Numbered from the stretch's first letter, positions 20,723-44,800 are shown. The stretch is DNA of 64,000 bases from an uncultured Bacteroidota bacterium (GCA_964609675.1 CAZSRX010000008.1:28618-92617), one strand, 5' to 3'. The notes: generated by a model not told the origin, from the sequence alone. Numbers and translations are program-made.

Positions 20723-20757
20723 AAACAGGCTCCGTTTAAATTGCTGATTGGGTTTAT

Positions 20758-20786
20758 ATAATACATAACTTTGCAACGATAATCAA
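20758..20786 (-). promoter_or_regulatory. Putative sigma70-type promoter of the DinB-family gene
   Basis: Minus strand TTGATT (20786-20781) - 17 nt - TATTAT (20763-20758). Confidence 0.55.
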
Positions 20787-20830
20787 TAGAATTATCCCCG
20801 ACGAACCCGGTGGATGCAATGTTAAAGTTT

Positions 20831-20859
20831 TTGCATAATAAGGTATTTATATTTATATT
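20831..20859 (+). promoter_or_regulatory. Putative sigma70-type promoter of the batB...pta gene run
   Basis: TTGCAT - 17 nt - TATATT, 45 nt upstream of ATG 20905. Confidence 0.55.
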
Positions 20860-20904
20860 CGCTCGTTATGATCGTTTTAACTTTAATCTGCAGGAAACAT
20901 TAAA

Positions 20905-24874: not shown

Positions 24875-24898
24875 GGAGCGTGTTTACGATTTTACAAT

Positions 24899-26917
24899 AT
24901 GGCCGATAATAATAAAACCAAAAATAAAAAATCATCGGGTAGCCACGAAAAGAGCAAAGGAAACGCGTCCAAAAGTAATCGGCCTGCCCCGCCGGGCGGC
25001 GGCCCGAATATGAAAAACTCGATGAGTACCGTTCTGATATGGATGGCGCTCTTTTTTGCGTTTTTTTTCCTCTATCACTTATTGAGCGGCAACACCGATA
25101 AAATCGCTGAAATTCCATTCTCGGAATATCAGGAACTGCTGGAAAGCAATAAGATCAGCGGTATCGTGATTACCGATTACGAATTAAGCGGCCTCCTCAA
25201 AGAAGACACCACACGGATTGTGGACGGAAAACTAACCCGATACAGTCAGTTCCGGACGTATCTGCCGTTTATCGATTCCAAAATGCTGGAGGATTGGAAG
25301 GCGCGTGGAATTGGCGTGGAGTTCACTAAAAAAGGAACGGATTTTTCCAGCATTCTTCTGCAGATGCTTCCGTGGATTATCGCCATCGGTATTTTTATTT
25401 TTATTCTTCGCCGCATGCAGGGCGGAGGTTCCGGCGGAAAAAACATTTTTTCGTTTGGTAAAAGCCGCGCCCGCATGTCCAGCGATAAGGACGCCAAAGT
25501 AACTTTTTCGGATGTGGCCGGCTGTGAGGAAGCAAAAACCGAACTTCAGGAAATCGTGGAATTTCTGAAAGATCCCGGTCGATTTACGCGTCTGGGCGGA
25601 CGCATTCCCAAAGGCGCGCTGCTGCTGGGCCCTCCGGGGACAGGCAAAACCCTTCTGGCCCGGGCCGTTGCGGGCGAAGCCGGCGTGCCGTTTTTCTCGA
25701 TCAGTGGAGCGGATTTTGTGGAAATGTTTGTCGGTGTAGGCGCGGCGCGGGTGCGCGACCTGTTTGAACAGGCCAAGAAAAACCATCCCTGCATTATTTT
25801 TATCGACGAGATCGACGCCGTTGGTCGGTCCCGCGGCGCAGGCCTGGGCGGCGGCCATGACGAACGCGAACAAACTCTTAACCAACTCCTCGTTGAAATG
25901 GACGGTTTCAACGCCAGCGATGGCATCATCGTCATCGCGGCAACCAACCGCCCGGATATTCTTGACACCGCGCTTCTGCGACCGGGCCGGTTCGACCGGC
26001 AAATCGTCGTTGACCAACCGGACGTCAAGGGCCGCGAGGAAATCCTTAAAATCCATGTCCGTAAAGTGCCGCTCAGCGACAATGTCCGTCTCGAAAAAAT
26101 CGCCAAAGGTACGCCCGGCCTCTCCGGCGCCGACCTCGAAAATTTAGTGAACGAAGCCTCGCTGCTTGCCGCACGGCGCAACTCCGATGTCGTGGAAAAT
26201 ATCGATTTTGAAAACGCCAAGGACAAGGTGATGATGGGCGTGGAACGGAAGAGTCTTGTTATAAACGAGAAAGAAAAAAACATGGTGGCTTACCATGAAG
26301 CCGGTCACGCGCTGGTCGCCAAATTACTGCCCGATTCGGACCCCGTTCACAAAGTCACTATTATTCCCCGCGGGCGCGCGCTGGGCCTGACGCATTACCT
26401 GCCCACCGACGACCGGCATATGTATTCCCGCCAGTTCATCCAGACCACATTGGTTCACCTGCTCGGCGGACGGGCGGCGGAAAAAATCGTCTTCAACCAC
26501 GTCACGACCGGCGCCGGCAACGACATTGACCGGGCTACCGCCGTGGCGCGTAAAATGGTCTGCGAATGGGGCATGAGCGACGCGTTGGGTCCGGTCGCCT
26601 TCGGCAAGAAGGACGAGGAAGTCTTCCTCGGACGCGAAATCGCCACCGCCCGCAATTACAGCGAAAAAACCTCCACGCTGATCGACGAGGAAATCAAACG
26701 GATCATCTGGGAAGCCGAAAAAACCGCTGACCAGCTTCTGCGGGATAATATCCAATACCTGCACGCCATCGCCCGCGCCCTCATCGAACGGGAAACAATC
26801 GATGCGGAAGATCTGGACCTGATCATGAAAGACCCGGACGCGTTCAACGGTAACGCGTCAAACCCTAAAACCCCTGAAACGGAAGTTACCCCTGCAGTCA
26901 TCACACCAACGGTATAA
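24899..26917 (+). CDS. ftsH: ATP-dependent zinc metalloprotease FtsH
   Basis: Two TM helices, [19 protein letters not shown], second region of homology [16 protein letters not shown]. Confidence 0.98.
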
Positions 26918-26923
26918 CAATTT

Positions 26924-28618
26924 ATGGAAAAACTGATTCGTTTTCTTTCCGGGGAAGTCCCCGGCGGCATCGGGCTATATATCGGCGTCATGTTTGTAAT
27001 TATCTTTATGGCTTGGTTCCTATACCGGTTTTCCGCCGTCATCAATAAGCAGAAGCTCAAACGCATAGCGATGTTTCTCTGCGCTTTTGCAACCTTTACT
27101 TACCTGATAGCCCGTTTATCCCGGCCGCCTCAGGAAGAAACCATTTACATTGCCGTCTGGCCGCTTCAATATCTTCCCGCTACCGGCTTCCCGGCTGATT
27201 CCGGGGAGTTCGCAGGACTCGGAAGAGCCCTGGCGGAATTAACAGCTTACCGCGGTATGATGACGTCGCCGGACCATATGCTCTTTCTCAAACCCGATTG
27301 GCTCTTAGACGCCTTCGACTCCACCGACCGCGCGGAACTGAAATATAACGATACCGTACGGCTTACAACCTGGTGCCGTACGCTTAAAATCAATTATATG
27401 GTCAGCGGATCCTACTCCATATCCGGAAAGTACCTTGAAATAAACGCCGACATCTATTCGCTTGAAGAAAGCGAATCCCGAGCGTTGATACGTGAAACCC
27501 TCTCATTTCAAACCACGCAAGACCTGGTACCGGCACTTGAAAACCTGTCTGCCATTATGACCAAAGGTATTTATAAAACCGCCGGTATGCGACCGGCGCC
27601 GGTTATGGAACCGGATCTGGAACTGTACCGATCCCCCGCTCTTTTACAATACGGTTATGCGCAGGAACTTTTCTCACGAGACCGCTATCAGGAATCGCTG
27701 GCCGCTTTCAACCGCGCGCACATGAAAGACAGTTCGCGCGCCCTGACATGGTTCGGCAAAGGTTTAGCCTACGGCGAACTGATGATCCGGACATCCGACG
27801 ACAAACTGCGCAACGACTACCAGAAGCGCGCCGAATACCATCTCAAAATGTGCGGCCAGAAAGCGCCCGGATTTGCCCCGGCTTATGTTGCCTTAGCGAA
27901 ATACTATCTGTTCATGAAACCGGAACCGCGGTATCTGGACGCCGAATTCGCTTTAATCGCCGGAAAAGAGTTATACGCGCGGGATTATATGATATATTAC
28001 CTGCTCAGCTTCATGCAGAAAATCCGCTGGGAATCATTCGGATTTACACGACGACAAGACATTCTGGCGCAGGCGCTTCAATATAATCCGGCCGCGTTCC
28101 AGACGTACCTGGAATACGGTTTTATGTTTCTTCAGTACGCCAAACCTCACGATTACAATACCCAGCAGGCGCTTCAGTGTTTCCGTACCGCTAAATTCCT
28201 GAGGCCGAATCATCTGAACGCGATCATGGGGCTTGTTTCCGCTTATGACTACATGGGATATTATGACGAAGCGCTTAAACTGCTCGAACAGGCCGATCGG
28301 TTGTACCCAAACCACACGGAAATATTTTACACGCAGGGCGTCGTGCATTATCATCAGGCGGCATGGTACAAAATGAAAAAACGTCGGCAGGATGAAAATC
28401 AAAGTTACCGGCTGGCCGAACAGTATTTTCAGCGGGCGGTCAAATCGGCCAATCACGGTTATGCCTTTTTGTACCTTGGAAAAATCTATGATATTCAGAA
28501 CCGTAAAAACGAGGCCATCGAAGCATTCCGCGCCGCCATGAAATACATCCCGCGCGAAGATCCTTACCGTGAGGAAGCGCGCAAAAAACTCAGGGAGTAT
28601 TTTCCGGATGTCGAATAG
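26924..28618 (+). CDS. Membrane-anchored TPR protein with a TolB-N/FlgO-like alpha/beta domain
   Basis: Two N-terminal hydrophobic helices; IAVWPL...YMVSGSYSISGKYLEINADI; several TPR-like helix pairs (ALTWFGKGLAY, AYVALAKYY, AIMGLVSAY, AFLYLGKIY). Confidence 0.7.
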   Translation: MEKLIRFLSGEVPGGIGLYIGVMFVIIFMAWFLYRFSAVINKQKLKRIAMFLCAFATFTYLIARLSRPPQEETIYIAVWPLQYLPATGFPADSGEFAGLGRALAELTAYRGMMTSPDHMLFLKPDWLLDAFDSTDRAELKYNDTVRLTTWCRTLKINYMVSGSYSISGKYLEINADIYSLEESESRALIRETLSFQTTQDLVPALENLSAIMTKGIYKTAGMRPAPVMEPDLELYRSPALLQYGYAQELFSRDRYQESLAAFNRAHMKDSSRALTWFGKGLAYGELMIRTSDDKLRNDYQKRAEYHLKMCGQKAPGFAPAYVALAKYYLFMKPEPRYLDAEFALIAGKELYARDYMIYYLLSFMQKIRWESFGFTRRQDILAQALQYNPAAFQTYLEYGFMFLQYAKPHDYNTQQALQCFRTAKFLRPNHLNAIMGLVSAYDYMGYYDEALKLLEQADRLYPNHTEIFYTQGVVHYHQAAWYKMKKRRQDENQSYRLAEQYFQRAVKSANHGYAFLYLGKIYDIQNRKNEAIEAFRAAMKYIPREDPYREEARKKLREYFPDVE

Positions 28619-29450
28619 CGTTGTCGAATACCTGATGACCGCGATGTCTCGCCGGCCGCTTCTGATGGGCATCCTGAACGTCACGCCGGATTCATTTTCC
28701 GACGGTGGTCGTTTTCTGAAACGGGATGACGCTCTGCGGCAGGCCGAAAAACTTAAAAACGACGGCGCCGATATCCTCGACATCGGCGGGGAGTCCACAC
28801 GGCCGGGCTCCGACCCTGTGAGTCTTCAGGAAGAAACCGACCGCGCGCTTCCGGTCGTCGAACGGGTCGTCCGTGATATCGGTCTTCCCGTTTCGATTGA
28901 TACTTATAAATCCGCCGTGGCGGCCGAGGCCGTCCGCGCCGGCGCCTGTCTGATCAACGACATCAGCGGCCTGACTTTCGATCCGGATATGGCCGCAACG
29001 GCCGCCCGCCTCAACGCCGGCCTGATTATCATGCACATCAAGGGCACGCCCAAGCACATGCAGGTAAACCCGCATTACGACGACGTGGTCGGCGAGGTCT
29101 TCACGTTTCTTGAACAACAGTGCCGGCTGGCCGCCAACGCCGGCGTACAGTCCATCATCATTGATCCCGGATTGGGATTCGGCAAACGGCTGGAGGATAA
29201 TTATCTTTTACTGAAACATCTTCAGGCATTCCGCCGGCTCGGGCGGCCTGTAATGATCGGCTCTTCCCGTAAATCGTTTCTCGGAAAACCCTTTAACGCC
29301 GGCCCGGACGATCGGCTGGAAGGTACGATCGTCACAAATGTCTGGGCGGCCATGCAGGGCGCATCGGTACTTCGCCTGCATGACATTCTTCCCGTAAGGC
29401 GCGCGCTGGAAATTCTTAACCGGATAACCGCCGAAACCCATGCAGACTGA
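28608..29450 (+). CDS. folP: Dihydropteroate synthase
   Basis: MGILNVTPDSFSDGG, DIGGESTRPG, SIDTYK, INDISG, IDPGLGFGK, GSSRKSF, RLHD. Confidence 0.96.
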   Translation: MSNSVVEYLMTAMSRRPLLMGILNVTPDSFSDGGRFLKRDDALRQAEKLKNDGADILDIGGESTRPGSDPVSLQEETDRALPVVERVVRDIGLPVSIDTYKSAVAAEAVRAGACLINDISGLTFDPDMAATAARLNAGLIIMHIKGTPKHMQVNPHYDDVVGEVFTFLEQQCRLAANAGVQSIIIDPGLGFGKRLEDNYLLLKHLQAFRRLGRPVMIGSSRKSFLGKPFNAGPDDRLEGTIVTNVWAAMQGASVLRLHDILPVRRALEILNRITAETHAD

Positions 29451-30291
29451 ATTATTTAAAATATTTTTCATACCGGTCACGTGGCTGGATATTCTGGACA
29501 TTCTGGCCGTCACGCTGATTCTTTTCCGCGCGTATCTCATCATCCAGGGAACCACCGCTTCGCGCATGCTGATCGGACTCATTATCATTTTGCTGCTGTC
29601 GTTCGCCGTGCAGGCGTTGAATATGCACGGGATGATGTGGCTGGTGGACCAGATCCGTACCGTCTGGGTTATCGCTTTCGTAATCATTTTCCAGCCCGAA
29701 CTACGCCGAATCCTGACCTCGCTGGGGCAGGGCCGTTTCATTAAAACGATTATCAAAATCGGCGTGCCGCATTATATTGACGACGTGGTCAAAGCCTGCG
29801 AAATGCTGGCCAAGCGCCGCAACGGCGCCATCATTGTGCTGGCCCAGACGGCCGGTCTTAAAAACATTATCGAAACCGGCCTGCCCGTGCAGGGACGCGT
29901 GTCCCACCAGCTACTCCAATCCATCTTCAACCCGCGCTCACCGCTGCACGACGGCGCCGTGATTATCGACAACGAGCAAATTGAGGCCGCCAAATGCCTG
30001 CTGCCCCTTAGCCAAAATCCGTTTATCGAATCCTCACTTGGCACACGACACCGTGCCGCTGTCGGCGTTACAGAACAATCCGACGCCGTCGCTATCGTCG
30101 TCTCGGAGGAAACCGGCAAAATCTCCACCGCGTTTAAAGGCGTGCTGCACCGCAATCTCACCGCCAGTGAACTCCGCCAGCACCTGATAGACATCATGAG
30201 CCAGTCTAAAACACGTAAATGGCTCCGACGACACCGCCGAAAAACCGACCGCAAGGATTTTTCAGGACTCGAACCCAATCAAACTAAATAA
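29440..30291 (+). CDS. cdaA: Membrane diadenylate cyclase CdaA/DacA
   Basis: N-terminal TM helices, VIIFQPELRR, LHDGAVII (DGA), GTRHRAA (RHR), VSEETG. Confidence 0.93.
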   Translation: MQTELFKIFFIPVTWLDILDILAVTLILFRAYLIIQGTTASRMLIGLIIILLLSFAVQALNMHGMMWLVDQIRTVWVIAFVIIFQPELRRILTSLGQGRFIKTIIKIGVPHYIDDVVKACEMLAKRRNGAIIVLAQTAGLKNIIETGLPVQGRVSHQLLQSIFNPRSPLHDGAVIIDNEQIEAAKCLLPLSQNPFIESSLGTRHRAAVGVTEQSDAVAIVVSEETGKISTAFKGVLHRNLTASELRQHLIDIMSQSKTRKWLRRHRRKTDRKDFSGLEPNQTK

Positions 30292-30324
30292 GACCATTCG
30301 ACGGCCTCATCTGTACAATATTAA

Positions 30325-33300
30325 ATGAATCGCACAGGAAAGTCTATGTATCCGACCAAACCAACCGGAATCATCATATTTATCGCATGCGTCATCGGTC
30401 TGACCGGTAACCTCTTAACCGCCCAAAACGGCGAAACGGTAAAATCAAAAAACGATTATATCTCGCTGAAATCTGTAAAACCGGGCGAGTATATTTATGA
30501 ACTGCAATTCCCCGATCCCCAGTTTGAAACGGTGTCGGTAAACGGTAAAACTTTTCATAAAATCAGCGCGCCTTTTTTTGAATCGATCACGCAACCCGGA
30601 GCGCCGGAACTGCCTAAGTTAACGTATTTGCTGGAACTGCCTGAAGGAAACCCTTCCGTATCGGTAATACAAAGCGCATCCAAACGTAGCCGTGTTCATA
30701 CTATCCTCCCGCACAGGGACCACGCCGCGATGGTTGCGCTATCGGAAAGCAGTTTTTCGGACGCTTCGACCACGGACTGGAAGCGGCAAAATGAATGGAT
30801 GCCTGCAAATTCCGTACACCTGCAGTTTCTCGGGCATTTCAGGGAAATTCCAATGTATCGGCTGGATATTTATCCTTACCGTTATCATGCTGTTAAGAAA
30901 GAACTGGAAGCGCTGCGTACGATGAGCATCCGCATTGTCTATCCGTCGAATAAAAAAGTGGCCATCACGGAACCGATTTCGGGTGATCTGCAGGCCCTGC
31001 TGAAAACTCAGATCATTAACTGGGAATCCGCAGGAAAAAACCGTATATGGCAGTCCAAAAAAAACCTGTATAAGGAAAACCTGCAGGCAAATTATCTGGG
31101 CAGCACCTACATCAAAATTACTCTCAATAAAGACGGCCTGTATAAAATTACCTACGATGACTTAAAACGGCTGATGCCTTTCAAATCTATTGATCCACGG
31201 TCTTTCCGTCTTATCTGTCAGGGACGGGAGGTACCGATATATTTCAAAGGCGAAGCCGACGGCGTTTTTTCAAATGGAGACTATTTTGAATTCTTCGGAG
31301 AACAATACCGTTCCAAATTTCATCCGTATTTAAAGGATATTCCATCCTTCAGCGGACATTATTATGATTTGTGGAGCGATGAGAATGTGTATTTCCTAAC
31401 CTGGGATGGACCTCTGGGACAGCGGCTGATAGAGGAGAACGCCGGTCTGCGTCAGGACACCAATCTCCTGCGCCCGCCTTTTTACACCGTCACGAGGCAT
31501 TTCGAGGACGACCGCGTACGGTCGGACCAGCTTAAAAATATTAACCTGATCCAGCCGGCGGTTGTTGAAGACATCTGGACGTTTGATGACGGCGTTTCAT
31601 ACATCGCCGGCGGTTCTAACGCCCAGTCCACGAGGGAGTACAAGTTTAACATCGAAAATCCCGATAATCTTTTTCAGCGCGTGGACACCCTCGTGATCAA
31701 CTTTCAGGGCATCAGTACCGGTTTACATTATATACAGGTATTCGTGAACGATGTGCTGTTGACGCCTACGGCCATGACCTGGTCCGGCGCGAAAAAATTT
31801 CAAGCCGCCTTGCCGGTATTCCCGGGCAGCGGCCGCCTGCGACACGGCGAAAACACGCTGCGCATCTTTACGCCGGCCAACGCGGAACGCAACCTGGACA
31901 TCATCGCCCTGAACTGGTTTGACGTTACCTACAAACGCAAGTACACGGCGTCGGACAGCACGTACATTCTTTTTACAGGCGGCGATACGTATCAATCCGG
32001 TTATGTCCACCAGATTGAAGTCAGCGGCTTCCGAACCCCGGCCATCAGTCTTTATAAAAAAGGCATCAGCAAAATGGTCAGCTGGGACGTTGATTCCAAT
32101 TCATTCGACGGGAGTTATAAAATCACCTTTCAGGACGCCATCTTCTTCCCCGAAACCGAATATATCGCCGTAACGGAAGAAGCCAAAATGAAACCGAAAT
32201 CCCTCACATTGGATACGTTGCGGGATCTCCGTCAGGGCAGTCATAATGCGCGATATCTGATCATTACACCGAAGATTTTCCGGAACAGCATTCAGCGGCT
32301 GGAAAACTATCGCAGAAACAGGGGTTATACGGTTGAAACCGTCCTCGCGGAGGATATTTATGACCAGTTTAATGCCGGCATAAAAAGTCCGTACGCTATT
32401 CGCGATTTTCTGCGTTTCGCGGCTCAATCCCCCGCCTGGCAAGGCACGCAGGGCTCGCCGCTCTATGTGGTTCTGATTGGCGATGCCTCCTATAATTCCA
32501 AGCGCAGTAAAAACGATTTCCTGCCGGTGCAATCCATCCAGACGCTTTCTTACGGCCCTGCTGGAAGCGATCACTGGTACGCGACGCTGGACGACGACAT
32601 CATCGCCGATCTGTTTATCGGTCGGATTTCCGTCACCACGAATACCGAACTGGACAATGTTATAGACAAAATTATCACCTATGAACAATCGGCGTATCCG
32701 GGCGATTGGAAGAACCGCGTCTGTTTTATCGGCGGCCAGCGTGAAACCCGCGGTCAGGGATCCAACAGCGAAATCCCGTATGACGTATTCCGCTATCAGA
32801 GTTCCAGGATTATTAACAATCGTCTGCCGCAGCGATTCTCGGCGGACCGTATCTATGCCTATCCGCTGAACGACCAGTTTTTCGGCGGCGCCAATGCAGT
32901 TATGAATGCGTTTAATACCGGCAAACTGCTTATGGCTTATCTGGGCCATGGGGGCGGCGGTATTTGGGGCGATCTGGACGCGCTCACGGGTAAGCCGCTT
33001 CTCAGCAATGATCAGGCGCTCGCGCTGACACCCACAAACGGTCCGTGGCCATTGGTCCTCAGTATGACCTGTTTTGTGGGCTCCTTCGAAGAAGACAGCC
33101 GCGTGGCCCTCGGCGAACTTCTGGTAAAAACCCCAAACCGCGGCGCCATCGGCGTGTATGCCGCCAGCGGCGTGGGCTGGATTATCGGCGACTACCAGTT
33201 GCTCGACCAAACGATACAGCCCATGCTGGAACAGGCCTCTACGGCCGGCGAAGCGTTGATACTGGGAAAGCTGAATTATATCATCCTGAAGGGCGCGGAC

Positions 33301-35541
33301 GATTTTCAGGCGGGCGGCGATTTCGGAAGCACTCTGGAACAGGCCTATATCGCGCCCAGTATGGTTTATCAGTTTAACTTTCTCGGCGATCCGGCCCTGC
33401 GGCTCAAAGTCCCTGAAAATAAAACCTTAAATTTATCCAATTATAGCCCGGTCAAAACCGACACCGTGCTAATCACCGGCAGCGCGGGCTTTTCCGCGGG
33501 CACAGCCAAACTTGAAGTGTATCAGTATAAGCCCGTTAGAGACTCGGTAACCAACGGCGCTAATATCGCGTCTCTGGTTACGATTTATTCGACTACGTTC
33601 ACAATCACAGGCAATGATTACAGCGTCGCGCTGAACCTTAGCGCTATACCGGATACGCTGCTGGATGACGGATTTGCCGGCGTCCGGATTTACGGCGAAT
33701 CATCCGACGGCACCCGGACATTCAGCGCTTCGGCTGATTTTGCCGTCAACGCAACGTACATATCGGATATCCAAACCATTCCGGCCGTAATCACCTCAAC
33801 CGATACGATACGATTTCGCTGCCGTGCCAATGACCCACAGGGCGTGGATCATGTAGTTGCACTCTATGAGCGCCTCGGCGTGATTAACCAGACCGGCCTC
33901 ATGGATACGCTGTATCCCGCCGACAATCAGTATTATGAAAGCCGCGGTATCGGTCCCTGGTCGGAAAAAGATGAACTGCGTTTCCATATCAAAGTTAAGG
34001 ATACAACCGGCGATTCCACCGTCACCGCCCGGTATTCCAATACCGTACGCGCCGGTATTGATCTGTCGCTCGGCGCCATCGATAACCCGGGTAACCCGCT
34101 GACCGACCGTATTTTCCTGAGCGGCGACAGCGTGGCCCGTATAATGGCGGTGATTGAAAACAACGGTTACCTGCCCGTAAACGACGTCCCGGTAAAGTTT
34201 TACAGGAACCATCCTCAGCTTGGCGGCATTTTGATCGGCGAAACCACAACCTCTATCGCCGGAACCATTCCCAATTCCGGTAAGACGGCTCGGGATACGG
34301 TTGCCATACCGGCCGCGCTGGAAAACGGTTCACACAATATTTATGTGTGGGTAGATTCCGCTCAAAGCGTTAATGACGTTAACCGGACCAACAATCTCGG
34401 TTACCGTACTCTGTCGCTGAATATTTTTAACGTCACGCCGGCGCTGGGCACAACCCTTTCCGGAATAAAAAATGATACGGTTTTTGTGGATGAACGTTTT
34501 GCGTTGTGCCTGCCGCCTGCCTCGGTCACACAACCCGCCACAATCGCGTTGACGCCCTTTACGAATGTCCGTTTAGTGAACCAACCGGATTTGGAATTGG
34601 CGATCCTGAAAAACGCTTCCGCGCCGGCCGCTTACCGTATAGACTTCAGCCGCTGGTCGGATGTAACCGCGCTCGGAAAGACTATGCTCGTTTATTTTAA
34701 CTACGACACCACCCGATATCCCTCCGCGCTGGGCTATAAGGACTCGCTGGGCGTCTATCGATGGGATTCCGGCAATCAGCGGTGGCGTTTAATCGGTTAC
34801 GATATCGGAAACATACCGGGCCGTGTAACGGTTCCACTCACCCGGCCTGAAGACTTCGGCGATCTGACGCTGATGATCAACCGCGACCGTACAGGTCCGG
34901 TCATCGAACCGAACATCGAAGGGCAGTATTTTTCTCAAGGCGCTATTGTTCCTAAGAATCCTAAAATCTCAGCCGTCATTTACGACCGCAACGGCGTAAG
35001 TCTGCTCAAGAGTAATTATTCCGTTTTCATCGATCAGCAACCGGCCGCCGCAAGCCATCTGATTTTGCCGGACTCCTCGCTGAACAGCAACACGGTTACG
35101 CTGATCTTAAGCCTTCCGCAAACATTCACTGCCGGCGAACATGTAATTACTTTTCAGGCGGCGGATGTAAACGGCAACCATAGCGCCATAACGGAATTAC
35201 GATTCAACGTCATTACCCAATTCAGCCTTAAAGTTATGGGTAATTTCCCGAATCCTTTTTCCAATACCACGACGCTGGCGTTTCGCGTCGAAGCGCCCGA
35301 GACGCTCGATAAACTGGAAGTGGCCATATATAGCGTTTCCGGACGTAAAATCCGTTCCATAACCTCCGACGATCCGGTTCAGGGCCCGCCGTTGAACGCC
35401 ATCGGCTATCATGAAGTCATCTGGGACGCCACGGACGACCACGGACACAACGTAGCTAACGGCATTTACTTTTACAGGATTAAAGGTCGTCTCAACGGTA
35501 AAACGGTTGAAAAACGCGGTAAAATAGCTTATTTTAGGTAA
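30325..35541 (+). CDS. C25 (gingipain-family) cysteine protease, PorU-like T9SS sortase candidate, with propeptide-like N-terminal region and C-terminal sorting domain (alternative start 30346)
   Basis: Signal peptide; YLIITP, YVVLIGDA, SDHWY, DLFIGRIS, YLGHGG (His), SMTCFVG (Cys), FLGDPAL; C-terminal NFPNPF...NGIYFYRI; directly followed by a PorV-family gene. Confidence 0.8.
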   Translation: MNRTGKSMYPTKPTGIIIFIACVIGLTGNLLTAQNGETVKSKNDYISLKSVKPGEYIYELQFPDPQFETVSVNGKTFHKISAPFFESITQPGAPELPKLTYLLELPEGNPSVSVIQSASKRSRVHTILPHRDHAAMVALSESSFSDASTTDWKRQNEWMPANSVHLQFLGHFREIPMYRLDIYPYRYHAVKKELEALRTMSIRIVYPSNKKVAITEPISGDLQALLKTQIINWESAGKNRIWQSKKNLYKENLQANYLGSTYIKITLNKDGLYKITYDDLKRLMPFKSIDPRSFRLICQGREVPIYFKGEADGVFSNGDYFEFFGEQYRSKFHPYLKDIPSFSGHYYDLWSDENVYFLTWDGPLGQRLIEENAGLRQDTNLLRPPFYTVTRHFEDDRVRSDQLKNINLIQPAVVEDIWTFDDGVSYIAGGSNAQSTREYKFNIENPDNLFQRVDTLVINFQGISTGLHYIQVFVNDVLLTPTAMTWSGAKKFQAALPVFPGSGRLRHGENTLRIFTPANAERNLDIIALNWFDVTYKRKYTASDSTYILFTGGDTYQSGYVHQIEVSGFRTPAISLYKKGISKMVSWDVDSNSFDGSYKITFQDAIFFPETEYIAVTEEAKMKPKSLTLDTLRDLRQGSHNARYLIITPKIFRNSIQRLENYRRNRGYTVETVLAEDIYDQFNAGIKSPYAIRDFLRFAAQSPAWQGTQGSPLYVVLIGDASYNSKRSKNDFLPVQSIQTLSYGPAGSDHWYATLDDDIIADLFIGRISVTTNTELDNVIDKIITYEQSAYPGDWKNRVCFIGGQRETRGQGSNSEIPYDVFRYQSSRIINNRLPQRFSADRIYAYPLNDQFFGGANAVMNAFNTGKLLMAYLGHGGGGIWGDLDALTGKPLLSNDQALALTPTNGPWPLVLSMTCFVGSFEEDSRVALGELLVKTPNRGAIGVYAASGVGWIIGDYQLLDQTIQPMLEQASTAGEALILGKLNYIILKGADDFQAGGDFGSTLEQAYIAPSMVYQFNFLGDPALRLKVPENKTLNLSNYSPVKTDTVLITGSAGFSAGTAKLEVYQYKPVRDSVTNGANIASLVTIYSTTFTITGNDYSVALNLSAIPDTLLDDGFAGVRIYGESSDGTRTFSASADFAVNATYISDIQTIPAVITSTDTIRFRCRANDPQGVDHVVALYERLGVINQTGLMDTLYPADNQYYESRGIGPWSEKDELRFHIKVKDTTGDSTVTARYSNTVRAGIDLSLGAIDNPGNPLTDRIFLSGDSVARIMAVIENNGYLPVNDVPVKFYRNHPQLGGILIGETTTSIAGTIPNSGKTARDTVAIPAALENGSHNIYVWVDSAQSVNDVNRTNNLGYRTLSLNIFNVTPALGTTLSGIKNDTVFVDERFALCLPPASVTQPATIALTPFTNVRLVNQPDLELAILKNASAPAAYRIDFSRWSDVTALGKTMLVYFNYDTTRYPSALGYKDSLGVYRWDSGNQRWRLIGYDIGNIPGRVTVPLTRPEDFGDLTLMINRDRTGPVIEPNIEGQYFSQGAIVPKNPKISAVIYDRNGVSLLKSNYSVFIDQQPAAASHLILPDSSLNSNTVTLILSLPQTFTAGEHVITFQAADVNGNHSAITELRFNVITQFSLKVMGNFPNPFSNTTTLAFRVEAPETLDKLEVAIYSVSGRKIRSITSDDPVQGPPLNAIGYHEVIWDATDDHGHNVANGIYFYRIKGRLNGKTVEKRGKIAYFR

Positions 35542-35544
35542 CGT

Positions 35545-36624
35545 ATGATAACCATCCGACAAATACTTTTCATATCCGTCGTCCTTCCGGCGGTGTTTTT
35601 TTCATCCTTACAGGCCGGCTCGGGCGATCGCTGGTACACTAACGCTTTTCTCGAAATTCCGTTAGGCGCCCGCGCGACAGGCCTTGGCGGCGCTTATGCC
35701 GGTGTGGCTAACGACGGCACCGCCTTCTTCTGGAATCCGGCGGGCATCACGCTCCTGCACAAACGGGAAATCAGTATGATGTATGCCGACCAGTTCGACG
35801 GATTCGGCCAGTATCATTTCATCAATTATTCCCATAAATTGTCGGAAACGTACGGATTCTCGGTCAGTTGGATCCGTTACAGCGTCGGCAGCATCGCGGA
35901 ATATAAGAAACTCGTGGACAATGTTTACGCCCGCAGCCAGCCGGATTACGACTTCAGCCAATACAGTCTCGGCCACTTTGACTACGCCGATAATGCATTT
36001 TTCTTTTCCTTCGCCCGTATGAATAAGTTTTATCTGAACATGGGATGGCTGTACAGCGATTTTCCCGTTCAAATCCCTGTCGGCGTAAATTTTAAAATCC
36101 TCAAGGGCGGAACCAGCGGGATTTCGGGAGAGAATGAAACCGTACTGAGCGACGCGAAAAAATTTGGTATCGGCGTCGATCTCGGCGCTATGCTGATGTT
36201 TGGCGTCAATGATCTGCTCGAAGCCCCGTATCTCGGTGATTTCGCGGCAGGAATCAACCTCCAGGACCTAACCACGACCGGCGTGACCTACAATTCGGCC
36301 TCATCCATCAGCCGTCAGCAACAGGTCAAACCGCGCGATGTAGCTCCGCTGAACGTCAAATTCGGCCTGTCTTATATTCAGCCGATCGATGAACTGGAAA
36401 GCAATGTCCTGATTGCTTACGAGCATAACAACCGCTATGGCGCCACCAGTCACTACGGCCTGGAATATGATTACAAACGGATGATACAGATTCGGCTGGG
36501 ATATAATCATGATAAAATCACTTATGGCGCCGGCCTTTCCGTATGGCAGTTCCAGATCGACTACGCCATTATCAGCCATGACCTGGGCTACACGCACCGT
36601 GTCAGCGCGGCTTATAAATTTTAA
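35545..36624 (+). CDS. PorV/PorQ-family (UPF0164) outer-membrane beta-barrel
   Basis: Signal peptide, FLEIPLGARATGLGGAY..ANDGTAFFWNPAG signature, amphipathic strands, terminal YKF. Confidence 0.85.
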   Translation: MITIRQILFISVVLPAVFFSSLQAGSGDRWYTNAFLEIPLGARATGLGGAYAGVANDGTAFFWNPAGITLLHKREISMMYADQFDGFGQYHFINYSHKLSETYGFSVSWIRYSVGSIAEYKKLVDNVYARSQPDYDFSQYSLGHFDYADNAFFFSFARMNKFYLNMGWLYSDFPVQIPVGVNFKILKGGTSGISGENETVLSDAKKFGIGVDLGAMLMFGVNDLLEAPYLGDFAAGINLQDLTTTGVTYNSASSISRQQQVKPRDVAPLNVKFGLSYIQPIDELESNVLIAYEHNNRYGATSHYGLEYDYKRMIQIRLGYNHDKITYGAGLSVWQFQIDYAIISHDLGYTHRVSAAYKF

Positions 36625-36635
36625 CGGATATTAAA

Positions 36636-37502
36636 ATGAAAAAAAATTATTCCTATCTGTTCTATCTCCTTCTGACTGGATTGGTTACGTTCTTAAACAG
36701 CTGTCCGGAAGAGGTTAATCCCGAATTTGACCCGCCCGGACCGGTTCGTATCCTACCCAATAACGGCGATACAACCATATCCGAATCAGGCCTGCGCACC
36801 ACGCTGGGTTCATCCGGGATTATCGTCGAATGGGAGAAACTGCAGACGACCGACAATGTTATCAAAGAATACCGCATTTTCAGGTCCAAAGGCATCGACA
36901 GCGCTTTTAAACAAATCGGTTCTGTTTTAAGTACTGAGGATCCGGTCTTTCTGGATATGACCGCTTCGAGAGATACTACTTATTATTACTATGTCACAGC
37001 CGTCGATACGCGTAACCGAACCAGTGATACCTCTTTATATTTCAGGCCGGACAGCGTCTCGATTTATATTCGTTTTATAACGCTTGAACAGCCCGCATCC
37101 GGCATACAGCCGCCGTTCTACCCCATGGATACAACCAGTACCAAACCTCTTTTTAAGTGGTGTTACCCCAAATTACCGACCCCTTTCAAATGCGTGTTGC
37201 ATATTGCCAATTCAGGACTTCAGACAATCTGGATCGCTCAAAAACCCGCAGGCGTTTTTGAAACCTGCGGCGAAGGCGCGCCGGTGGAATATATCACGTA
37301 CCACCATCTATCCTATCTGACCAATGACAGCCTGCGTTGTTCCAATCCCGGCGCTGTAGTTGTGAATTACTCCCATCCGATATGGGCGCAAACGTCCCGT
37401 TTGGCAAAAGGCAATTATTACTGGCGGCTGAGCTGTTACTGGCCGGACGGCAACCGTGAATCTCGAACTAATTGGATCGCATTCTCCATCACCAGGGATT
37501 GA
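36636..37502 (+). CDS. Lipoprotein with a fibronectin type III-like domain and a second beta-sandwich
   Basis: Lipobox LNS-C; IIVEW...EYRIFRS...FLD...TTYYYYVTAVD FN3 pattern; GNYYWRL. Confidence 0.75.
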   Translation: MKKNYSYLFYLLLTGLVTFLNSCPEEVNPEFDPPGPVRILPNNGDTTISESGLRTTLGSSGIIVEWEKLQTTDNVIKEYRIFRSKGIDSAFKQIGSVLSTEDPVFLDMTASRDTTYYYYVTAVDTRNRTSDTSLYFRPDSVSIYIRFITLEQPASGIQPPFYPMDTTSTKPLFKWCYPKLPTPFKCVLHIANSGLQTIWIAQKPAGVFETCGEGAPVEYITYHHLSYLTNDSLRCSNPGAVVVNYSHPIWAQTSRLAKGNYYWRLSCYWPDGNRESRTNWIAFSITRD

Positions 37503-37538
37503 ATCCATCATCATTTATCATAAAATCCGGAGTATCTT

Positions 37539-38516
37539 ATGAATATTGTCGAATCCATCCGTCTGAAAGCCAAAGAAAAAAAACGCCGTATTGTCTTACC
37601 CGAAGGCGAGGAAGACCGTACCTTGCAAGCTATGAAGATTATACTCAATGAAGAACTGGCCAAACCGACGCTTCTCGGTGACGCTGATAAAATACGGGCG
37701 CGCGCCAGGGAACTGAATATCGAAATCCCATCTTCCGTTGCAATCTTGGATCCAAAAAAATCCGACAAGGTTTCCGATTACGCGAGCGAATTATTTAACC
37801 TGCGTAAGGCTAAAGGCATGACGTATGAAGAAGCCAAATCGCTGATGCAGACCATCCTCTATTACGGCGCGATGATGGTACGCCGCGGTGAAGTGGACGG
37901 CATGGTTGGCGGTGCGGTCGCTACTACTGCCGATGTTATGCGGGCGGCTATTTACTGCGTGGGCACGGCGCCGGGCATTAAAACGGTTTCCAGCATGTTC
38001 CTCATGGTGTTGCCGGACGGTCGCTCGGTCACATTCGCCGACTGCGCGGTGAACCCTTATCCGGACGAAAACCAGCTGGCCGATATCGCCATCGCTTCTG
38101 CGGACACGCACAGGCAGCTCACCGGCGAAGAGCCGGTTATGGCGATGCTGTCGTTTTCCACCAAAGGCAGCGCCAAGCACGACGCCGTCACCAAAGTGGT
38201 CAATGCGTTGAATATTGTTAAACAAAAACGTCCCGACCTCAAAGCCGACGGCGAAATGCAGTTCGACGCCGCATTCGTAGAAGCCATCGGCAAACGGAAA
38301 GCTCCGGATAGCCCCGTCGCCGGAAAAGCCAATGTGTTTATTTTCCCGAATCTGGACGCCGGTAATATCGGCTACAAAATCACCGAACGCATCGGTAAAG
38401 CGCAGGCCGTCGGTCCCGTTATTCAAGGACTGGCCAAACCTATCAATGATCTCTCGCGCGGCTGCAGCGCCGAGGACATCGCCAACGTCACCGCGATTTG
38501 TTCCCTGAAGGCATAA
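37539..38516 (+). CDS. pta: Phosphate acetyltransferase (short PTA/PTB type)
   Basis: RIVLPEG, FADCAVNP, AMLSFSTKGSA, DGEMQFDAA, FIFPNLDAGNIGYK, INDLSRGCS. Confidence 0.95.
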   Translation: MNIVESIRLKAKEKKRRIVLPEGEEDRTLQAMKIILNEELAKPTLLGDADKIRARARELNIEIPSSVAILDPKKSDKVSDYASELFNLRKAKGMTYEEAKSLMQTILYYGAMMVRRGEVDGMVGGAVATTADVMRAAIYCVGTAPGIKTVSSMFLMVLPDGRSVTFADCAVNPYPDENQLADIAIASADTHRQLTGEEPVMAMLSFSTKGSAKHDAVTKVVNALNIVKQKRPDLKADGEMQFDAAFVEAIGKRKAPDSPVAGKANVFIFPNLDAGNIGYKITERIGKAQAVGPVIQGLAKPINDLSRGCSAEDIANVTAICSLKA

Positions 38517-38522
38517 AACTAT

Positions 38523-38556
38523 AAAGTCCCGACCACACCGTCGGGACTTTTTTTTT
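38523..38556 (+). terminator. Rho-independent terminator after pta (convergent with dxs)
   Basis: AAAGTCCCGAC-cacacc-GTCGGGACTTT plus T run. Confidence 0.9.
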
Positions 38557-40666: not shown

Positions 40667-41773
40667 TTAAATAGCAAAATTGACACCTACGCTGTAAGCT
40701 TTCTTCTTAGCCATACTGTAGTCTGCATTGATATTAACAAGCAGGAACCGGAAATTGCTTCCGACTGTAATACGGTCTTTATTAACCCCTTTGGCCTTAA
40801 ATTTTACAGGAATGGTATTATTCGCGTCCATGACATAATCATATTTGAATGTCATTTCTGAGGATTCCCTGAGATAACCGGCATATGGCGTGATATTCAA
40901 AAAACCAAATCCAAGTTGTTTACTCACTGTCGCACCATAAGCTACGGCATGGGCTTCAAACAATTTTCCCTGGCTGATATTTTGCTGATAAAACGCGGCG
41001 GCAAAATCCATTGGCATCTTAAAAGGCAGCCACACGGCAGGATTGTGCTGTATTCCCCATCCGAAATAATTCATTTTACCGACCTTGCCATATATTTTGG
41101 CCGGCGGCAGATAGCGTAAAGTAACCTGAGTGCCCCAAACCGTACCGATAGTTGCCTGGGGCGCCATAAGCGGCACAACTGGCGATTCGAGAATGCCTCC
41201 GATTTTTAAAGTATCTCTGATATTATTTAATTCTATTGTCTGCGTTTGCCCGTTGGGATCAGTAATATTGAACGTTTTATTGCCAATGGTAACAACGATT
41301 TTATCTGATTTTTTTCCAATAAATGTGGCGCCGGACAATGTTACCGGTACGGATTGACCGACAATTTGTGATGAAACCGTATTAATAGCGGTTATTTTTT
41401 GAGCGGAATCAAGACTATTATACCAGGCCTGATTTCTTAAATAGGCTTCGGATATTTCATTCGCATCGGCTTGCTGAAATTGATAATCGCCGGTGGTGGA
41501 AAACCGTTTATCTTTATCGGTGAACATCGTTCCTACAAATACCACGCCGACTTCAATGTCCAGTCCGAATTTTTTGGCTTTTGGTGAACGGTGAAACCAT
41601 CCGGTATTCAGATTTGTCGAAAAGCCGGTGGTTACCGGTTTGGTATATAACTTAGCCGCGGGTTCGGCAAGTCCGGTAATCGCTTCCTTCAGATTGCCCT
41701 GCGCCATTGTCAATGAGGCAACAATAAAAATTAAGCCCAAAATGAGTGACAAATTTTTGGTAACAGCTTTCAT
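40667..41773 (-). CDS. Exported beta-barrel-like protein, DUF6588-like
   Basis: Signal peptide ending TMA-Q; FSTNLNTGWF, PQATIGTVWGTQVTLRYLP, GWGIQH, amphipathic C-terminal strands ending VGVNFAI; GGAGG RBS before ATG 41773. Confidence 0.62.
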   Translation of the reverse strand: MKAVTKNLSLILGLIFIVASLTMAQGNLKEAITGLAEPAAKLYTKPVTTGFSTNLNTGWFHRSPKAKKFGLDIEVGVVFVGTMFTDKDKRFSTTGDYQFQQADANEISEAYLRNQAWYNSLDSAQKITAINTVSSQIVGQSVPVTLSGATFIGKKSDKIVVTIGNKTFNITDPNGQTQTIELNNIRDTLKIGGILESPVVPLMAPQATIGTVWGTQVTLRYLPPAKIYGKVGKMNYFGWGIQHNPAVWLPFKMPMDFAAAFYQQNISQGKLFEAHAVAYGATVSKQLGFGFLNITPYAGYLRESSEMTFKYDYVMDANNTIPVKFKAKGVNKDRITVGSNFRFLLVNINADYSMAKKKAYSVGVNFAI

Positions 41774-41820
41774 AGAGTACCTCCGGTTAGTTATTATATT
41801 ATTTGCTTGTAATATAATAA

Positions 41821-41860
41821 AAACAAAGGGCGGGTGCAAATATTCCCGCCCTTTTTTTTA
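41821..41860 (-). terminator. Terminator downstream of the giant gene
   Basis: AAAGGGCGGG-loop-CCCGCCCTTT (41825-41854) with T/A tracts on both sides. Confidence 0.85.
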
Positions 41861-41875: not shown

Positions 41876-44800
41876 TTATTTGATGACCATCATCTTATGG
41901 GTCTTGGTAAACCGCTGTTTGCCTTCCAGCGCTTTTGCGGTAATTCGATAGATGTACACACCGGATGCGACAGCCGTATTGCGGTTACTGAGTCCGTTCC
42001 ATCGGACTTTGTGGAATCCGGGTTCCATCTTCTTGTTCACCAGCGTCTGCACTTCCTGGCCAAGGATGTTGTAGATCTTTATGGTTACCTGCGCTGCGAC
42101 CGGCAGATCGTACTCGATGGTTGTGTTCGGGTTAAAAGGATTCGGATAATTCTGCGACAACCGGAAGCTCTTCGGCAGATCCACCAGAACGTATTCGGCG
42201 TCATGAACATTAATCTTGCCGTCATACGAAACGTCAGCGATACGATAAGCGTAGCGCGCGCCGGACTTCACTTCGGTATCTTCGAAGATATAATCCGTCG
42301 CAGAGGGCTTGGTACCTGCGCCCTTAAGCTGACCGGCTGAAGCAAACGTAGAATACAGCTGTTCGATGGTGATAAGACCCTTGTTCAGTTTGTCGTATTC
42401 TTCTTCCGAAATTTCTTTCTTAAACACGAGCCAGTAAGCGTTATTCAGCTCGCTTTCGGTTCTCCATTCCAGCGTTACTTTGCCGTTTTCGGAGCGTGCG
42501 CGGAAATAAGCCAGTTCGACCGGCAGGCTCGCGTCATTAACGGCGTCGCAGATGACCAGTGTATCCAGTATGCCCGCGCGGAACGGGTAGTTTGCGGCTT
42601 GTACCCACAGCTCGGTGGTATCCCGAAGCATGGTTACGCCCGGCATCGTATCGATCATGGCCCATACACCGGCGCTGCGCCGCCAGATATGTAACTGATT
42701 CTTATTATTATTATTCAGTTCATCGCGCCCATAATACAAGCGTATCGTGTCATTGCTGACCGTATTAGCGGATTGGACAGTGTAGTATCGCATTACAGCA
42801 GCTACGGCAACATTCAGCGTATCGCTAATCAACCGCACGGTCGTGCTTCCTAAGGCGTTGCCTAAGGTCTTAATACGGAAGTCATTTCCGAATATAACAT
42901 TGGCGCTGGTGCCTACGTTTTGGGTTTCATTGAAACTCCACCGTACGCGTCCGTAGGAAGGATCGCCATTATCCTGTTCATAGCGCACGCCGCTCATGGT
43001 GCCTTTGTAATTGACAAAGGATATACGTCCATTGCCGGACGTATTGGAAACATTGTAAAGCATGCGATTCGTGGCGGCAGAGTCAAACCGTACGCCGCTT
43101 GGGCTGACGAACTGATCGCTGGCCATTGAGATATAGGCATTGCCGGTGCCGCTCAGGAAGAAGGTGTTGTCCATCTTCTGGGTCGATTCAATCAGTGCGC
43201 CGGACTGCAGGGTTATACCATATTGCCCGCTGCCACCGAGATTGAAGAAGCCGGCGTTCTTGACGTCCAGCGTGCCGCCGCTCGCGACCACCATACGGTA
43301 GTTCCCGCTTACCGAACCGATGTTAGCGCGGTTAGCGTACGTTGTATCCGTACCGATTGCGCGGAAAATACCATTGTTGTTGATATTAATAACCGTGCCG
43401 TCACCGAAGCGGGATACCTTCGCGGCCTGGGCTTGCAGTAATCCCGAAACGTTGAAATTATTGCAATCTTCGATAGTACCGTAACCCATAACCAGGGTAC
43501 CATTATCGTAAACGTTAATAGAATAATTTCCTGAGATAAGTCTTGTAAGTCGCGCACGGATAGCATCGGAGGTACCAAGTATACTTAAAGAACCGCCGTA
43601 TATATTAACCTTGGTGCCGTTAGTCATCTTCAAGTTACCGCCTCCGGATACAAGCAGATCGCCGCTATAAACCCGGATGGAATCCGTTGCGGCATCGCCA
43701 TAATCGAAATTTCTTCCGCTTAGATCAAATGTGCCGTCCCGGACGATAAAATGATTTATCACTTTTGAATCACCTGTGGAAGTAACGGTCGCACCGGTTT
43801 TGTTAATTACCAGATTGGCAATCGAATTGTTTCCATCATCATAATTAGAAGCCGTTGATCCGTTGAGTATGAGAGAATCGCCGGCTTGCATAGTCACCGA
43901 AGCTGTTAAAGTAACATTACCGCCAATGGTTAAATGTCTGTTATTGGTCCTGAACCCACCGGATGATACGGTGAATTCGTTAGTAACGATGTTATTATTT
44001 GAATTTAATTGTAAATAATTACCCGAATTTTTATTGACAACAAGCCGATAATACGTCGTTCCATTGGTTTCGATACTTGAATTGATATTGCCTACAAACG
44101 ATACGGTTCTTCCGTTAGGAATAAATGTGCCGCCGTTATTATACCAACTGCCATATACTTCAATATCACTGCTGGATAAATCAAATATACCATTGACAAT
44201 ATTCAATAGACCGCGTAATTGCAGCGAAGACGCCAATCGAATAGTACCCGATGGTTTATCAATACGAACATTATAAAAGGGTTTGGACGTCCCGCCGGTA
44301 TTAATTGTCTGTAAACCAGTACCGTTGAATATGATATTTCCTGTACCGTAATTAAAGGTACCTGTGGTAGTCCAGTTTTCTCCGCAAACAATTTTATTGT
44401 TATTAGCCGTTAACGTAGCGCCGGCACCTATTGTAATACTTTTAGCTACAAACATAGTATCAGTGCCAGTAGTCAACGTTAACGAAGAGGACGTTCCCGT
44501 TATTAATAAGCTTCCGACAAGCCGCATTCGTTTAGTGGCATTAACGTTTACAGTTGCACCGTCTCGAATGGTTATATTATTGCAGGTAAGATTGGTATCA
44601 TACTGTACATTCGTAAATCCTGAAGGAATAAGAGCGTTCTTTGTCGCATCATCGGGTAAGCCATTAGGATTCCAATTTTCAGCTACTTTCCATGAGCGCC
44701 CGGTACCGGAGGGACCGCCGTCAAAAGTATAGGTAGTCGTGGAATAACGCCAGTCTAAATAAGCGCCGGAACTGTAGGCCTCGCCTTCAAACGCTCCGCT

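Follow-up and report, generated by a model that had tools for sequence, protein, structure and literature searches.

Three adjacent genes at nt 30325-37502 of the DNA stretch analysed here (64,000 nt, CAZSRX010000008.1:28618-92617, assembly GCA_964609675.1; hereafter the window, in which all positions are counted from its first letter) very probably constitute a cell-surface sorting, or attachment, module belonging to a type IX secretion system (T9SS). They encode a long PorU-like cysteine peptidase of the C25 type, a PorV-like outer-membrane barrel and a lipoprotein with a fibronectin type III (FN3) domain, arranged as follows:

30325-35541, plus strand: PorU-like C25 peptidase gene, 1738 amino acids (aa)
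35545-36624, plus strand: PorV-like barrel gene, 359 aa, 3 nt after the PorU-like gene
36636-37502, plus strand: lipoprotein gene, 288 aa, 11 nt after the PorV-like gene

An earlier reading of the same DNA, made from its letters alone (the sequence-only reading), had proposed a PorU-like sortase followed after 3 nt by a PorV-like barrel and 11 nt later by an FN3 lipoprotein. Both gaps were found as claimed, and the three assignments were borne out, the first protein grouping with PorU (3e-64 by profile against the PDB), the second being closest to Flavobacterium johnsoniae PorV in fold and sequence, and the third carrying a lipobox and matching FN3 profiles.

A long PorU-type peptidase

The 1738-aa protein consists, from the N-terminus, of a signal peptide, a gingipain-type prodomain, a PorU N-terminal region, the catalytic domain, an Ig-like/CARDB insert, a PorU C-terminal domain and a C-terminal sorting domain (CTD) of type A, with the following features located:

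30505-31041, plus strand: Propeptide_C25 (gingipain-type prodomain), residues 61-239, Pfam 6.4e-12
32254-33405, plus strand: Peptidase_C25 catalytic domain, residues 644-1027, Pfam 5e-81
32947-32949, plus strand: codon of His875
33070-33072, plus strand: codon of Cys916
34135-34395, plus strand: CARDB/Ig-like domain, residues 1271-1357, Pfam CARDB 4.5e-4
35245-35541, plus strand: type A CTD, FlgD_ig/Por_Secre_tail match at residues 1641-1735, TIGR04183 23.0 bits and FlgD_ig 27.3 bits

A dyad of His (GHGG) and Cys (MTCF), together with a C-terminal tail of the protein's own, had been claimed by the sequence-only reading. GHGG occupies residues 874-877 and MTCF residues 914-917; the His of the first (H875) and the Cys of the second (C916) are both invariant across 21 homologues, at identities down to 25%. 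The tail lies at the cutoffs of two models (TIGR04183, 23.0 vs 23 bits; FlgD_ig, 27.3 vs 27 bits) and aligns with the CTD of Porphyromonas gingivalis PorU (PDB 6za2) as well as with the tails of the cargo proteins described below.

Searching the PDB with the single sequence gave P. gingivalis PorU 6za2 as best match (8.4e-19), with gingipain at 1.8e-7, and the family profile (21 members) matched PorU 6za2 at 3e-64 and the gingipains at 3.8e-31 (gingipain R2) or weaker. The match of the profile with PorU runs through three collinear segments, namely the PorU N-terminal strand, residues 376-916 (catalytic domain and following domain) and residues 932-1153 (C-terminal domain and CTD), and aligns GHGG and the Cys-bearing strand with the same motifs of PorU; the match with the gingipains is confined to the catalytic domain. 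The NCBIfam PorU model (NF033707) scored 305.3 bits, with residues 261-1034 on model positions 6-739 of 1095.

Two parts of the protein have no place in these alignments. The prodomain precedes the start of PorU, since both the NCBIfam PorU and the 6za2 alignments begin only at about residue 250-261, and the family profile also matches the prodomain structures of Kgp and RgpB (5mun and 4ief_A). An insert of about 400 residues (approximately 1110-1490) is without counterpart in P. gingivalis PorU, the alignment skipping profile positions 1108-1488, and in this region the family profile matches the CARDB-like structures 2kut and 3idu. An exact-sequence look-up of the protein returned no record. 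Judged from sequence, the 1738-aa protein is a PorU orthologue and not a gingipain-like cargo; by analogy with PorU, it is predicted to remove the CTDs of cargo proteins and to transfer the cargos to a surface glycolipid.

The PorV-type barrel

The 359-aa protein carries a signal peptide, and its AlphaFold2 model, built with 49 homologues, reached a pLDDT of 91.1 and a pTM of 0.84. When the model was submitted to Foldseek, the PorV chains 8gl6_F and 6h3i_F ranked first and second (6e-14 and 1e-11; TM-score 0.62-0.68), with FadL/TodX below them at TM < 0.5; that this chain is PorV was confirmed by profile match. The family profile of the barrel retrieved F. johnsoniae PorV from the PDB at 7.3e-23 and essentially nothing else. 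As modelled, the 359-aa protein is a PorV-type, FadL-like outer-membrane barrel, for which binding of cargo CTDs and docking on SprA are predicted by analogy. Among the NCBIfam models, PorV2 (NF052325) gave 102.9 bits against a cutoff of 325 and PorQ 38.2 bits against a cutoff of 220, the Pfam matches to UPF0164 and Toluene_X were weak, and the NCBI pipeline names the family 'UPF0164 family protein'. Fusions of about 640-665 aa that join TPR repeats with a PorV/PorP-SprF-like barrel were observed among the barrel homologues (P0096, P0108-P0110).

These data also bear on a different assignment of the pair, in which the 1738-aa protein would be a secreted gingipain-like cargo protease, the barrel a FadL/UPF0164-type transporter, and their adjacency incidental. 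The prodomain and CTD, present in gingipains as well, would fit such an assignment, as would the UPF0164 name and the weak Pfam matches; we regard it as highly improbable, because the profile match with PorU is about 33 orders of magnitude better and includes the PorU-specific N- and C-terminal regions, by fold as well as by sequence the barrel stands nearer to PorV than to FadL/TodX, and the two genes adjoin in 65 of 71 loci bearing the labels of many candidate phyla (see below). The sequence-only reading had itself allowed for an ordinary gingipain-like cargo, and this is contradicted by the grouping of the protein with PorU and by SprA standing beside this type of PorU in four related loci.

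The FN3-type lipoprotein

A signal peptide with the lipobox FLNSC, ending at Cys23, opens the 288-aa protein. In a full-length alignment of orthologues taken from 32 related loci, Cys23 is nearly invariant, the classic FN3 pattern (W66, Y..R, Y118) is present, and a second beta-rich domain follows, ending in an invariant W263-R264. The family profile matches the FN3 domains of many PDB entries (best 3e-6), and Pfam fn3 is detected in four of the 33 family members; no curated Pfam or NCBIfam family covers the protein. Used alone as query in a word-indexed homologue search, the lipoprotein retrieved only a 98% twin, and a search with the concatenated PorV and lipoprotein alignment gave PorV-type and generic FN3 proteins, with no recognisable lipoprotein orthologue. 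Its conservation and position suggest that the lipoprotein may be a structural or adaptor subunit of a PorU-PorV complex.

CTD tails and probable cargos in the window

The same tail is carried by three further proteins of the window, in agreement with the sequence-only reading, which had counted three probable cargos with tails:

10-2403, plus strand: M14 carboxypeptidase, probable cargo; Peptidase_M14 1.9e-68, TIGR04183 44.5 bits
2408-3601, plus strand: 397-aa secreted protein, probable cargo; TIGR04183 42.1 bits, signal peptide visible
41876-56155, minus strand: 4759-aa surface protein, probable cargo; FlgD_ig 36 bits and Por_Secre_tail 23.3 bits at residues 4670-4742

The four tails, that of the PorU-like protein included, are mutually alignable over the motifs NPNPF, IYN..G, W(D/N)G and SGIY(F/I)YR (including GIYFYR). 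TIGR04183, the model of the type A sorting domain, has a cutoff of 23 bits, which both scanned cargos (10-2403 and 2408-3601) pass; the tail of the 4759-aa protein was scored with Pfam only. Since the residues that match FlgD_ig also pass TIGR04183, these are ordinary type A CTDs and 'FlgD-type' is a naming artefact of overlapping models. The idea of a distinct version of the system using FlgD-type tails is thus not supported, the same residues reaching the TIGR04183 cutoff (44.5, 42.1 and 23.0 vs 23 bits). The open reading frame (ORF) of the M14 carboxypeptidase begins at position 10 and lacks a signal peptide; its N-terminus has probably been lost at the edge of the window.

Directly downstream of the 4759-aa protein lies a gene for a 390-aa DUF6588 protein (40667-41839, minus strand; Pfam DUF6588 3.9e-38). 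This pair is kept in a 55%-identity relative (L001/L003), and its arrangement recalls pairs of a giant adhesin and an outer-membrane partner, e.g., SprB/SprF; the DUF6588 protein is a possible partner of the giant cargo. Profile-profile comparison found no relation between DUF6588 and the PorV-like family (probability <=11%).

Relatives, gene pairing and link to the translocon

Relatives were collected by scanning one genome per GTDB species, which yielded 582, and the best 80 of these 582 were taken as loci, whose gene content was determined by ORF, BLAST and hidden Markov model analysis. The phylum names used here are the submitters' labels, some of which are evidently wrong ('Actinomycetota', 'Deferribacteres', 'Caldisericaceae'). 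In all of the best 80 of 582, PorU is about 1550-1740 aa long. The protein database contained a 98% twin, eleven homologues of equal length at 48-55% identity, and then a tier at 25-30%. Among the species representatives, the seven closest metagenome-assembled genomes (MAGs), with 41-55% PorU identity, were deposited by at least three groups under the labels Bacteroidota/Bacteroidetes bacterium or 'bacterium', and the full operon order is present in the five of these loci that are long enough. The same gene order around PorU occurs in contigs of P0002 (275 kb, GCA_964410965.1) and P0005 (GCA_019695335.1), in P0002 spanning from DinB to the pair of DUF6588 protein and giant cargo. Labels in the 25-31% tier are Calditrichota, Marinimicrobia/Neomarinimicrobiota, KSB1, Latescibacteria, Cloacimonadota, Poribacteria and Gemmatimonadota.

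Of the 71 loci in which this could be assessed, 65 have a PorV-like gene directly downstream of the PorU-like one; of the 58 assessable for the lipoprotein gene, 48 have it immediately behind the PorV-like gene. In one locus, L028, the gene for a 2077-aa SprA/Sov (L028:840-7070; TIGR04189, 896.7 bits vs cutoff 200) stands upstream of the long PorU at a distance of three to four genes, with an M28 peptidase, prmA and a DUF4390 protein between them. BLAST-cluster relatives of this SprA occupy the same position in L038, L045 and L073, the TIGR04189 scan having covered L028 only among the four loci. Two of the four are KSB1-labelled; the SprA order being common to KSB1-, 'Cytophagia'- and unlabelled loci suggests that some taxonomic labels are unreliable. 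The adjacency in the four loci connects the long PorU family, in relatives only, with a genuine T9SS translocon.

A second set of PorU and PorV in the genome was considered in the light of these results, the pair described here being then a paralogous one of the PorU2/PorV2 kind, serving a subset of cargos, with canonical porU and porV elsewhere. The ranking of the barrel scores (PorV2 102.9, PorV/PorQ family 80.8, PorV equivalog 25.3 bits), the match of the peptidase with the PorU2 N-terminal model (235 bits) and the fact that only 64 kb of the genome were seen speak in its favour. Both scores, however, are far under the respective cutoffs (450 for PorU2 and 325 for PorV2), and for the peptidase the PorU model gives more bits (305) than the PorU2 model (235). 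Moreover, PorU motifs retrieve the long type in the best 80 of 582 relatives, under labels of at least seven candidate phyla, and SprA adjoins the long PorU in four related loci, as expected of a primary set. We therefore consider a second set of this kind quite unlikely.

Several results weigh against the assignment of the three genes to a T9SS attachment module. The PorU-like protein is under the NCBIfam PorU equivalog cutoff (305.3 vs 420 bits), and the barrel is under those of both the PorV/PorQ family (NF033709, 80.8 bits over an end-to-end alignment, cutoff 90) and the PorV equivalog (NF033710, 25.3 vs 250 bits). The lipoprotein matches no known T9SS component, and its single-sequence model was unusable (pLDDT 33.5). 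The six loci without PorV (L034, L066, L067, L074, L075 and L080) are all labelled Poribacteria, and neither the SprA translocon, nor the GldKLMN motor, nor a clear PorZ or PorQ was found within the 64-kb window. Being below the curated NCBIfam cutoffs, the PorU- and PorV-like proteins are filed as diverged orthologues and not as equivalogs. The attachment module remains our preferred assignment, and from the CTD cargos and the relatives we infer that SprA, GldKLMN, PorZ and PorQ are encoded in the genome of this organism.

As to PorZ, a 323-aa beta-propeller lipoprotein with an LTSC lipobox and without CTD is encoded at 17691-18662 (plus strand) and matches the PorZ model weakly (85.9 vs 260 bits), over the second-propeller part of the model. 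With a score so far below the cutoff and no CTD, it is not claimed as PorZ; the match could reflect generic two-component-regulator-propeller similarity or a diverged PorZ-like partner. The window holds no PorQ candidate.

Other neighbours were recorded in the related loci. The Poribacteria-labelled loci without PorV are also without an adjacent lipoprotein and have a PEP-CTERM-type histidine kinase and a sigma-54 response regulator upstream. In many Calditrichota-, Marinimicrobia- and Cloacimonadota-labelled loci, the three genes are followed by those for an SLBB-domain protein of about 166 aa and a protein of about 386 aa (L017:17312-17809 and L017:17924-19060, respectively, with about 35 and 27 other loci). 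The latter belongs to no known family and has a C-terminal coiled coil. Both lack a homologue in the window, in which pta takes their place, and neither is related to the PorV-like family by profile-profile comparison (probability <=11%).

Operon context and expression

The three genes are part of a co-oriented string of housekeeping genes, which ends at a hairpin:

20905-30291, plus strand: two VWA/BatA-like genes (starting at 20905 and 21932), tilS, hpt, ftsH, a membrane TPR protein, folP and cdaA (Pfam, NCBIfam)
37539-38516, plus strand: pta, phosphate acetyltransferase (Pfam PTA_PTB 9.4e-126; TIGR00651 387 bits)
38523-38550, between the convergent pta and dxs: bidirectional intrinsic terminator with an 11-bp stem, 6 G-C pairs and T-runs on both strands

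From 20905 to 38516 every gene lies on the plus strand, and no gap exceeds 36 nt; those upstream of the PorU-like gene overlap or are separated by at most 33 nt, and pta, 36 nt after the lipoprotein gene, is the last of the string. No good terminator was found within the string ahead of 38523. Coordinates, strand and the 38523-38550 hairpin agree with the sequence-only reading, which had described the genes from batB (20905) to pta (38516) as co-oriented, with gaps of 36 nt or less and one strong terminator. Its description of the lineage as using Shine-Dalgarno (SD) sequences holds weakly at best, a 4-nt SD core being present upstream of 13 of 36 genes only and of none of the three focal genes. 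Neither tRNAs nor Rfam elements were found in the 64-kb window. Transcription of the PorU-, PorV- and lipoprotein genes probably runs on from the upstream ftsH-folP-cdaA string and ends at the terminator behind pta.

The linkage recurs in relatives: of the 68 loci that could be assessed, 30 have cdaA <=5.6 kb upstream of the PorU-like gene. These 30 include every one of the seven close MAGs, 15 of 17 Calditrichota and three of six Marinimicrobia, with tilS-hpt-ftsH-(TPR)-folP-cdaA as the usual order; in several of the cdaA-linked Calditrichota loci a CTD protein is inserted ahead of the PorU-like gene. Elsewhere the PorU/PorV pair is found in other contexts, such as proS-cinA-purD in Cloacimonadota, or with murE-type genes downstream in KSB1.

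Sequence nearly identical to the window was found in biogas-fermenter, bioreactor-sludge and hot-spring metagenomes, and two sludge runs labelled as RNA-Seq contain 54-60% of the sampled words. Contigs from RNA-Seq-labelled data cross the junctions cdaA>PorU (30239-30548), PorU>PorV (35303-36043), PorV>lipoprotein (36533-36922) and lipoprotein>pta (37179-37670), and would fit expression of the genes with continuous transcription from cdaA to pta; it counts against this reading that their depth is 3-6, that the RNA nature of the libraries is a guess, and that DNA carry-over is possible. One contig of run X12 joins 20329 to 35455, thus skipping 15.1 kb, with 20 letters on the shorter side, and is most likely an assembly chimera.

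The housekeeping linkage might instead be an inherited gene order devoid of regulatory meaning, with the sorting genes having their own promoter and not forming one operon with their neighbours. Promoter-like hexamers do occur inside the string, e.g., at 37499-37526 before pta, and Cloacimonadota-, KSB1- and Poribacteria-labelled loci have other neighbourhoods (proS-cinA-purD or SprA-M28-prmA); also listed on this side is the number of promoter-like sites, 28 vs 19.8 ± 3.9 in shuffles, which is not a clear enrichment. Conversely, the gaps of 3-36 nt, the lack of a good terminator before 38523, the occurrence of cdaA within 5.6 kb in 30 of 68 assessable loci with different phylum labels, and the RNA-Seq-labelled contigs across cdaA>PorU and the next three junctions all point to a single operon. 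We hold the absence of regulatory meaning to be a real but less likely possibility, and retain read-through from cdaA to pta.

Between ftsH and folP, the gene at 26924-28618 (plus strand) encodes a 564-aa protein that has transmembrane helices at its N-terminus and TPR repeats at its C-terminus, and a weakly similar protein (21-29% identity) stands in the same position in most Calditrichota-labelled loci. As its matches are to generic TPR models only, it is not claimed as an analogue of SprE/PorW.

Host lineage

The sequence-only reading had placed the module outside Bacteroidota. This is not supported by the seven closest MAGs, which carry the submitters' labels Bacteroidota/Bacteroidetes or 'bacterium'; with the nearest MAGs (46-55% identity, identical gene order) deposited as Bacteroidota, a position outside the phylum is unproven, and the host may possibly be a member of a deep Bacteroidota class.

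Proposed mechanism

In the canonical cycle of Porphyromonas and Flavobacterium, CTD cargos are exported by Sec, pass the SprA pore, are bound by the loops of PorV and, as a PorV-cargo complex, reach PorU, whose Cys/His dyad cleaves the CTD and moves the new C-terminus to an amine, that of anionic lipopolysaccharide (LPS) in P. gingivalis; PorU is itself a CTD protein that stays bound to PorV (PMC10202324, PMC10994853, PMC12365241). Latency of canonical PorU is reportedly achieved by dimerisation through a beta-hairpin (PMC10202324).

The homology, fold, catalytic residues, cross-phylum gene pairing and cargo tails described above, together with the SprA adjacency in related loci, suggest the following scheme for the window. 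CTD cargos exported by Sec would pass the outer membrane by way of SprA/Sov, a translocon whose gene would lie elsewhere in the genome. Each cargo would attach by its CTD to the extracellular loops of the PorV-type barrel (35545-36624) and leave SprA as a PorV-cargo complex, and the barrel would then present it to the PorU-type cysteine peptidase (30325-35541), which presumably takes the same export route and remains bound to PorV by its own CTD, left uncleaved. If enzymatically active, the His875/Cys916 dyad would remove the cargo CTD and either release the cargo or transfer it to a surface glycolipid. The N-terminal gingipain-type prodomain may keep PorU latent until the surface is reached, and such a covalent prodomain would be a latency solution unlike the dimerisation of canonical PorU. 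The extra Ig-like domains would keep the catalytic domain at a greater distance from the membrane, and the lipid-anchored FN3 protein, presumably co-transcribed, may join the PorU-PorV complex as tether or adaptor.

Comparison with known systems

The T9SS was long called Bacteroidetes-specific (TXSScan 2016, PMC4793230). Reviews now describe it as present in, or possibly extending to, other phyla of the Fibrobacterota-Chlorobiota-Bacteroidota (FCB) group, with Fibrobacterota, Gemmatimonadetes, Cloacimonadota, Ignavibacteriota and Rhodothermota named as probable hosts and Fibrobacter succinogenes among the organisms in which the system or its components were studied experimentally (PMC11285876, PMC11205867). 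A T9SS module in a non-Bacteroidia FCB lineage is hence expected and not surprising, and the novelty that the sequence-only reading attached to a T9SS beyond Bacteroidota was overstated, these reviews already placing the system across FCB (PMC11285876, PMC11205867). In the literature searched, no paper was found on the PorU2/PorV2 gene pair or family or on PorU-/PorV-like proteins of this kind, nor any description of the long PorU architecture, of an FN3 lipoprotein as third member or of a cross-phylum ftsH-folP-cdaA linkage; the genome paper of Caldithrix abyssi makes no mention of T9SS.

The mechanism of the T9SS is known almost wholly from Porphyromonas and Flavobacterium. The long PorU (about 1550-1750 aa), which comes with a dedicated lipoprotein partner, is the form retrieved in Calditrichota-, Marinimicrobia-, Cloacimonadota-, KSB1-, Latescibacteria-, Poribacteria- and Gemmatimonadota-labelled genomes and in the lineage of the window. 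Sediments, oceans and anaerobic digesters are rich in these groups, and polymer breakdown there is driven by CTD-tagged hydrolases. The module offers a three-gene target for studying cargo anchoring in organisms that may lack both the anionic LPS of Porphyromonas type and PorZ/PorQ, and it indicates that curated models (NCBIfam cutoffs, the 'UPF0164' naming) under-annotate PorU- and PorV-type components. As a speculation that we hold to be rather doubtful, the long PorU, the PorV barrel and the FN3 lipoprotein could form an alternative, possibly ancestral, attachment complex of most non-Bacteroidia FCB lineages, the lipoprotein taking the tethering or anchor-donor role of PorZ/PorQ and the ftsH-folP-cdaA linkage coupling attachment to envelope homeostasis signalling through cyclic di-AMP (c-di-AMP).

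Compared with PorU of P. gingivalis (PG0026, 6za2) and F. johnsoniae, the 1738-aa protein shares the C25 domain with the aligned His/Cys dyad, a PorU-type region before the catalytic domain, a C-terminal domain with a type A CTD, and a porV gene immediately downstream. Canonical PorU is, however, about 580 residues shorter, the 1738-aa protein adding the prodomain (61-239) and the Ig-like/CARDB insert of about 400 residues. The barrel resembles PorV (F. johnsoniae 6h3i/8gl6 chain F; P. gingivalis PG0027/LptO) in its FadL-like fold, size and position after porU, with 16% identity to F. johnsoniae PorV in the structural alignment at TM 0.62-0.68. The gingipains RgpB and Kgp have in common with the 1738-aa protein the C25 fold, the N-terminal inhibitory prodomain family PF08126 and the type A CTD, but they are without the flanking domains of PorU type, are not syntenic with porV and are matched much more weakly than PorU. 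The putative second pair PorU2/PorV2 of NCBIfam (NF052324/NF052325) likewise consists of a C25 protein and a PorV/PorQ-like barrel, and the scores of the window proteins are far below its cutoffs (235 vs 450 and 102.9 vs 325 bits). The system described here is a long, little-studied version of the known T9SS machine, with no new secretion system or secretion principle; what really sets it apart from the canonical pair is the long PorU, a lipoprotein that has been conserved, and a housekeeping linkage old enough to span phyla.

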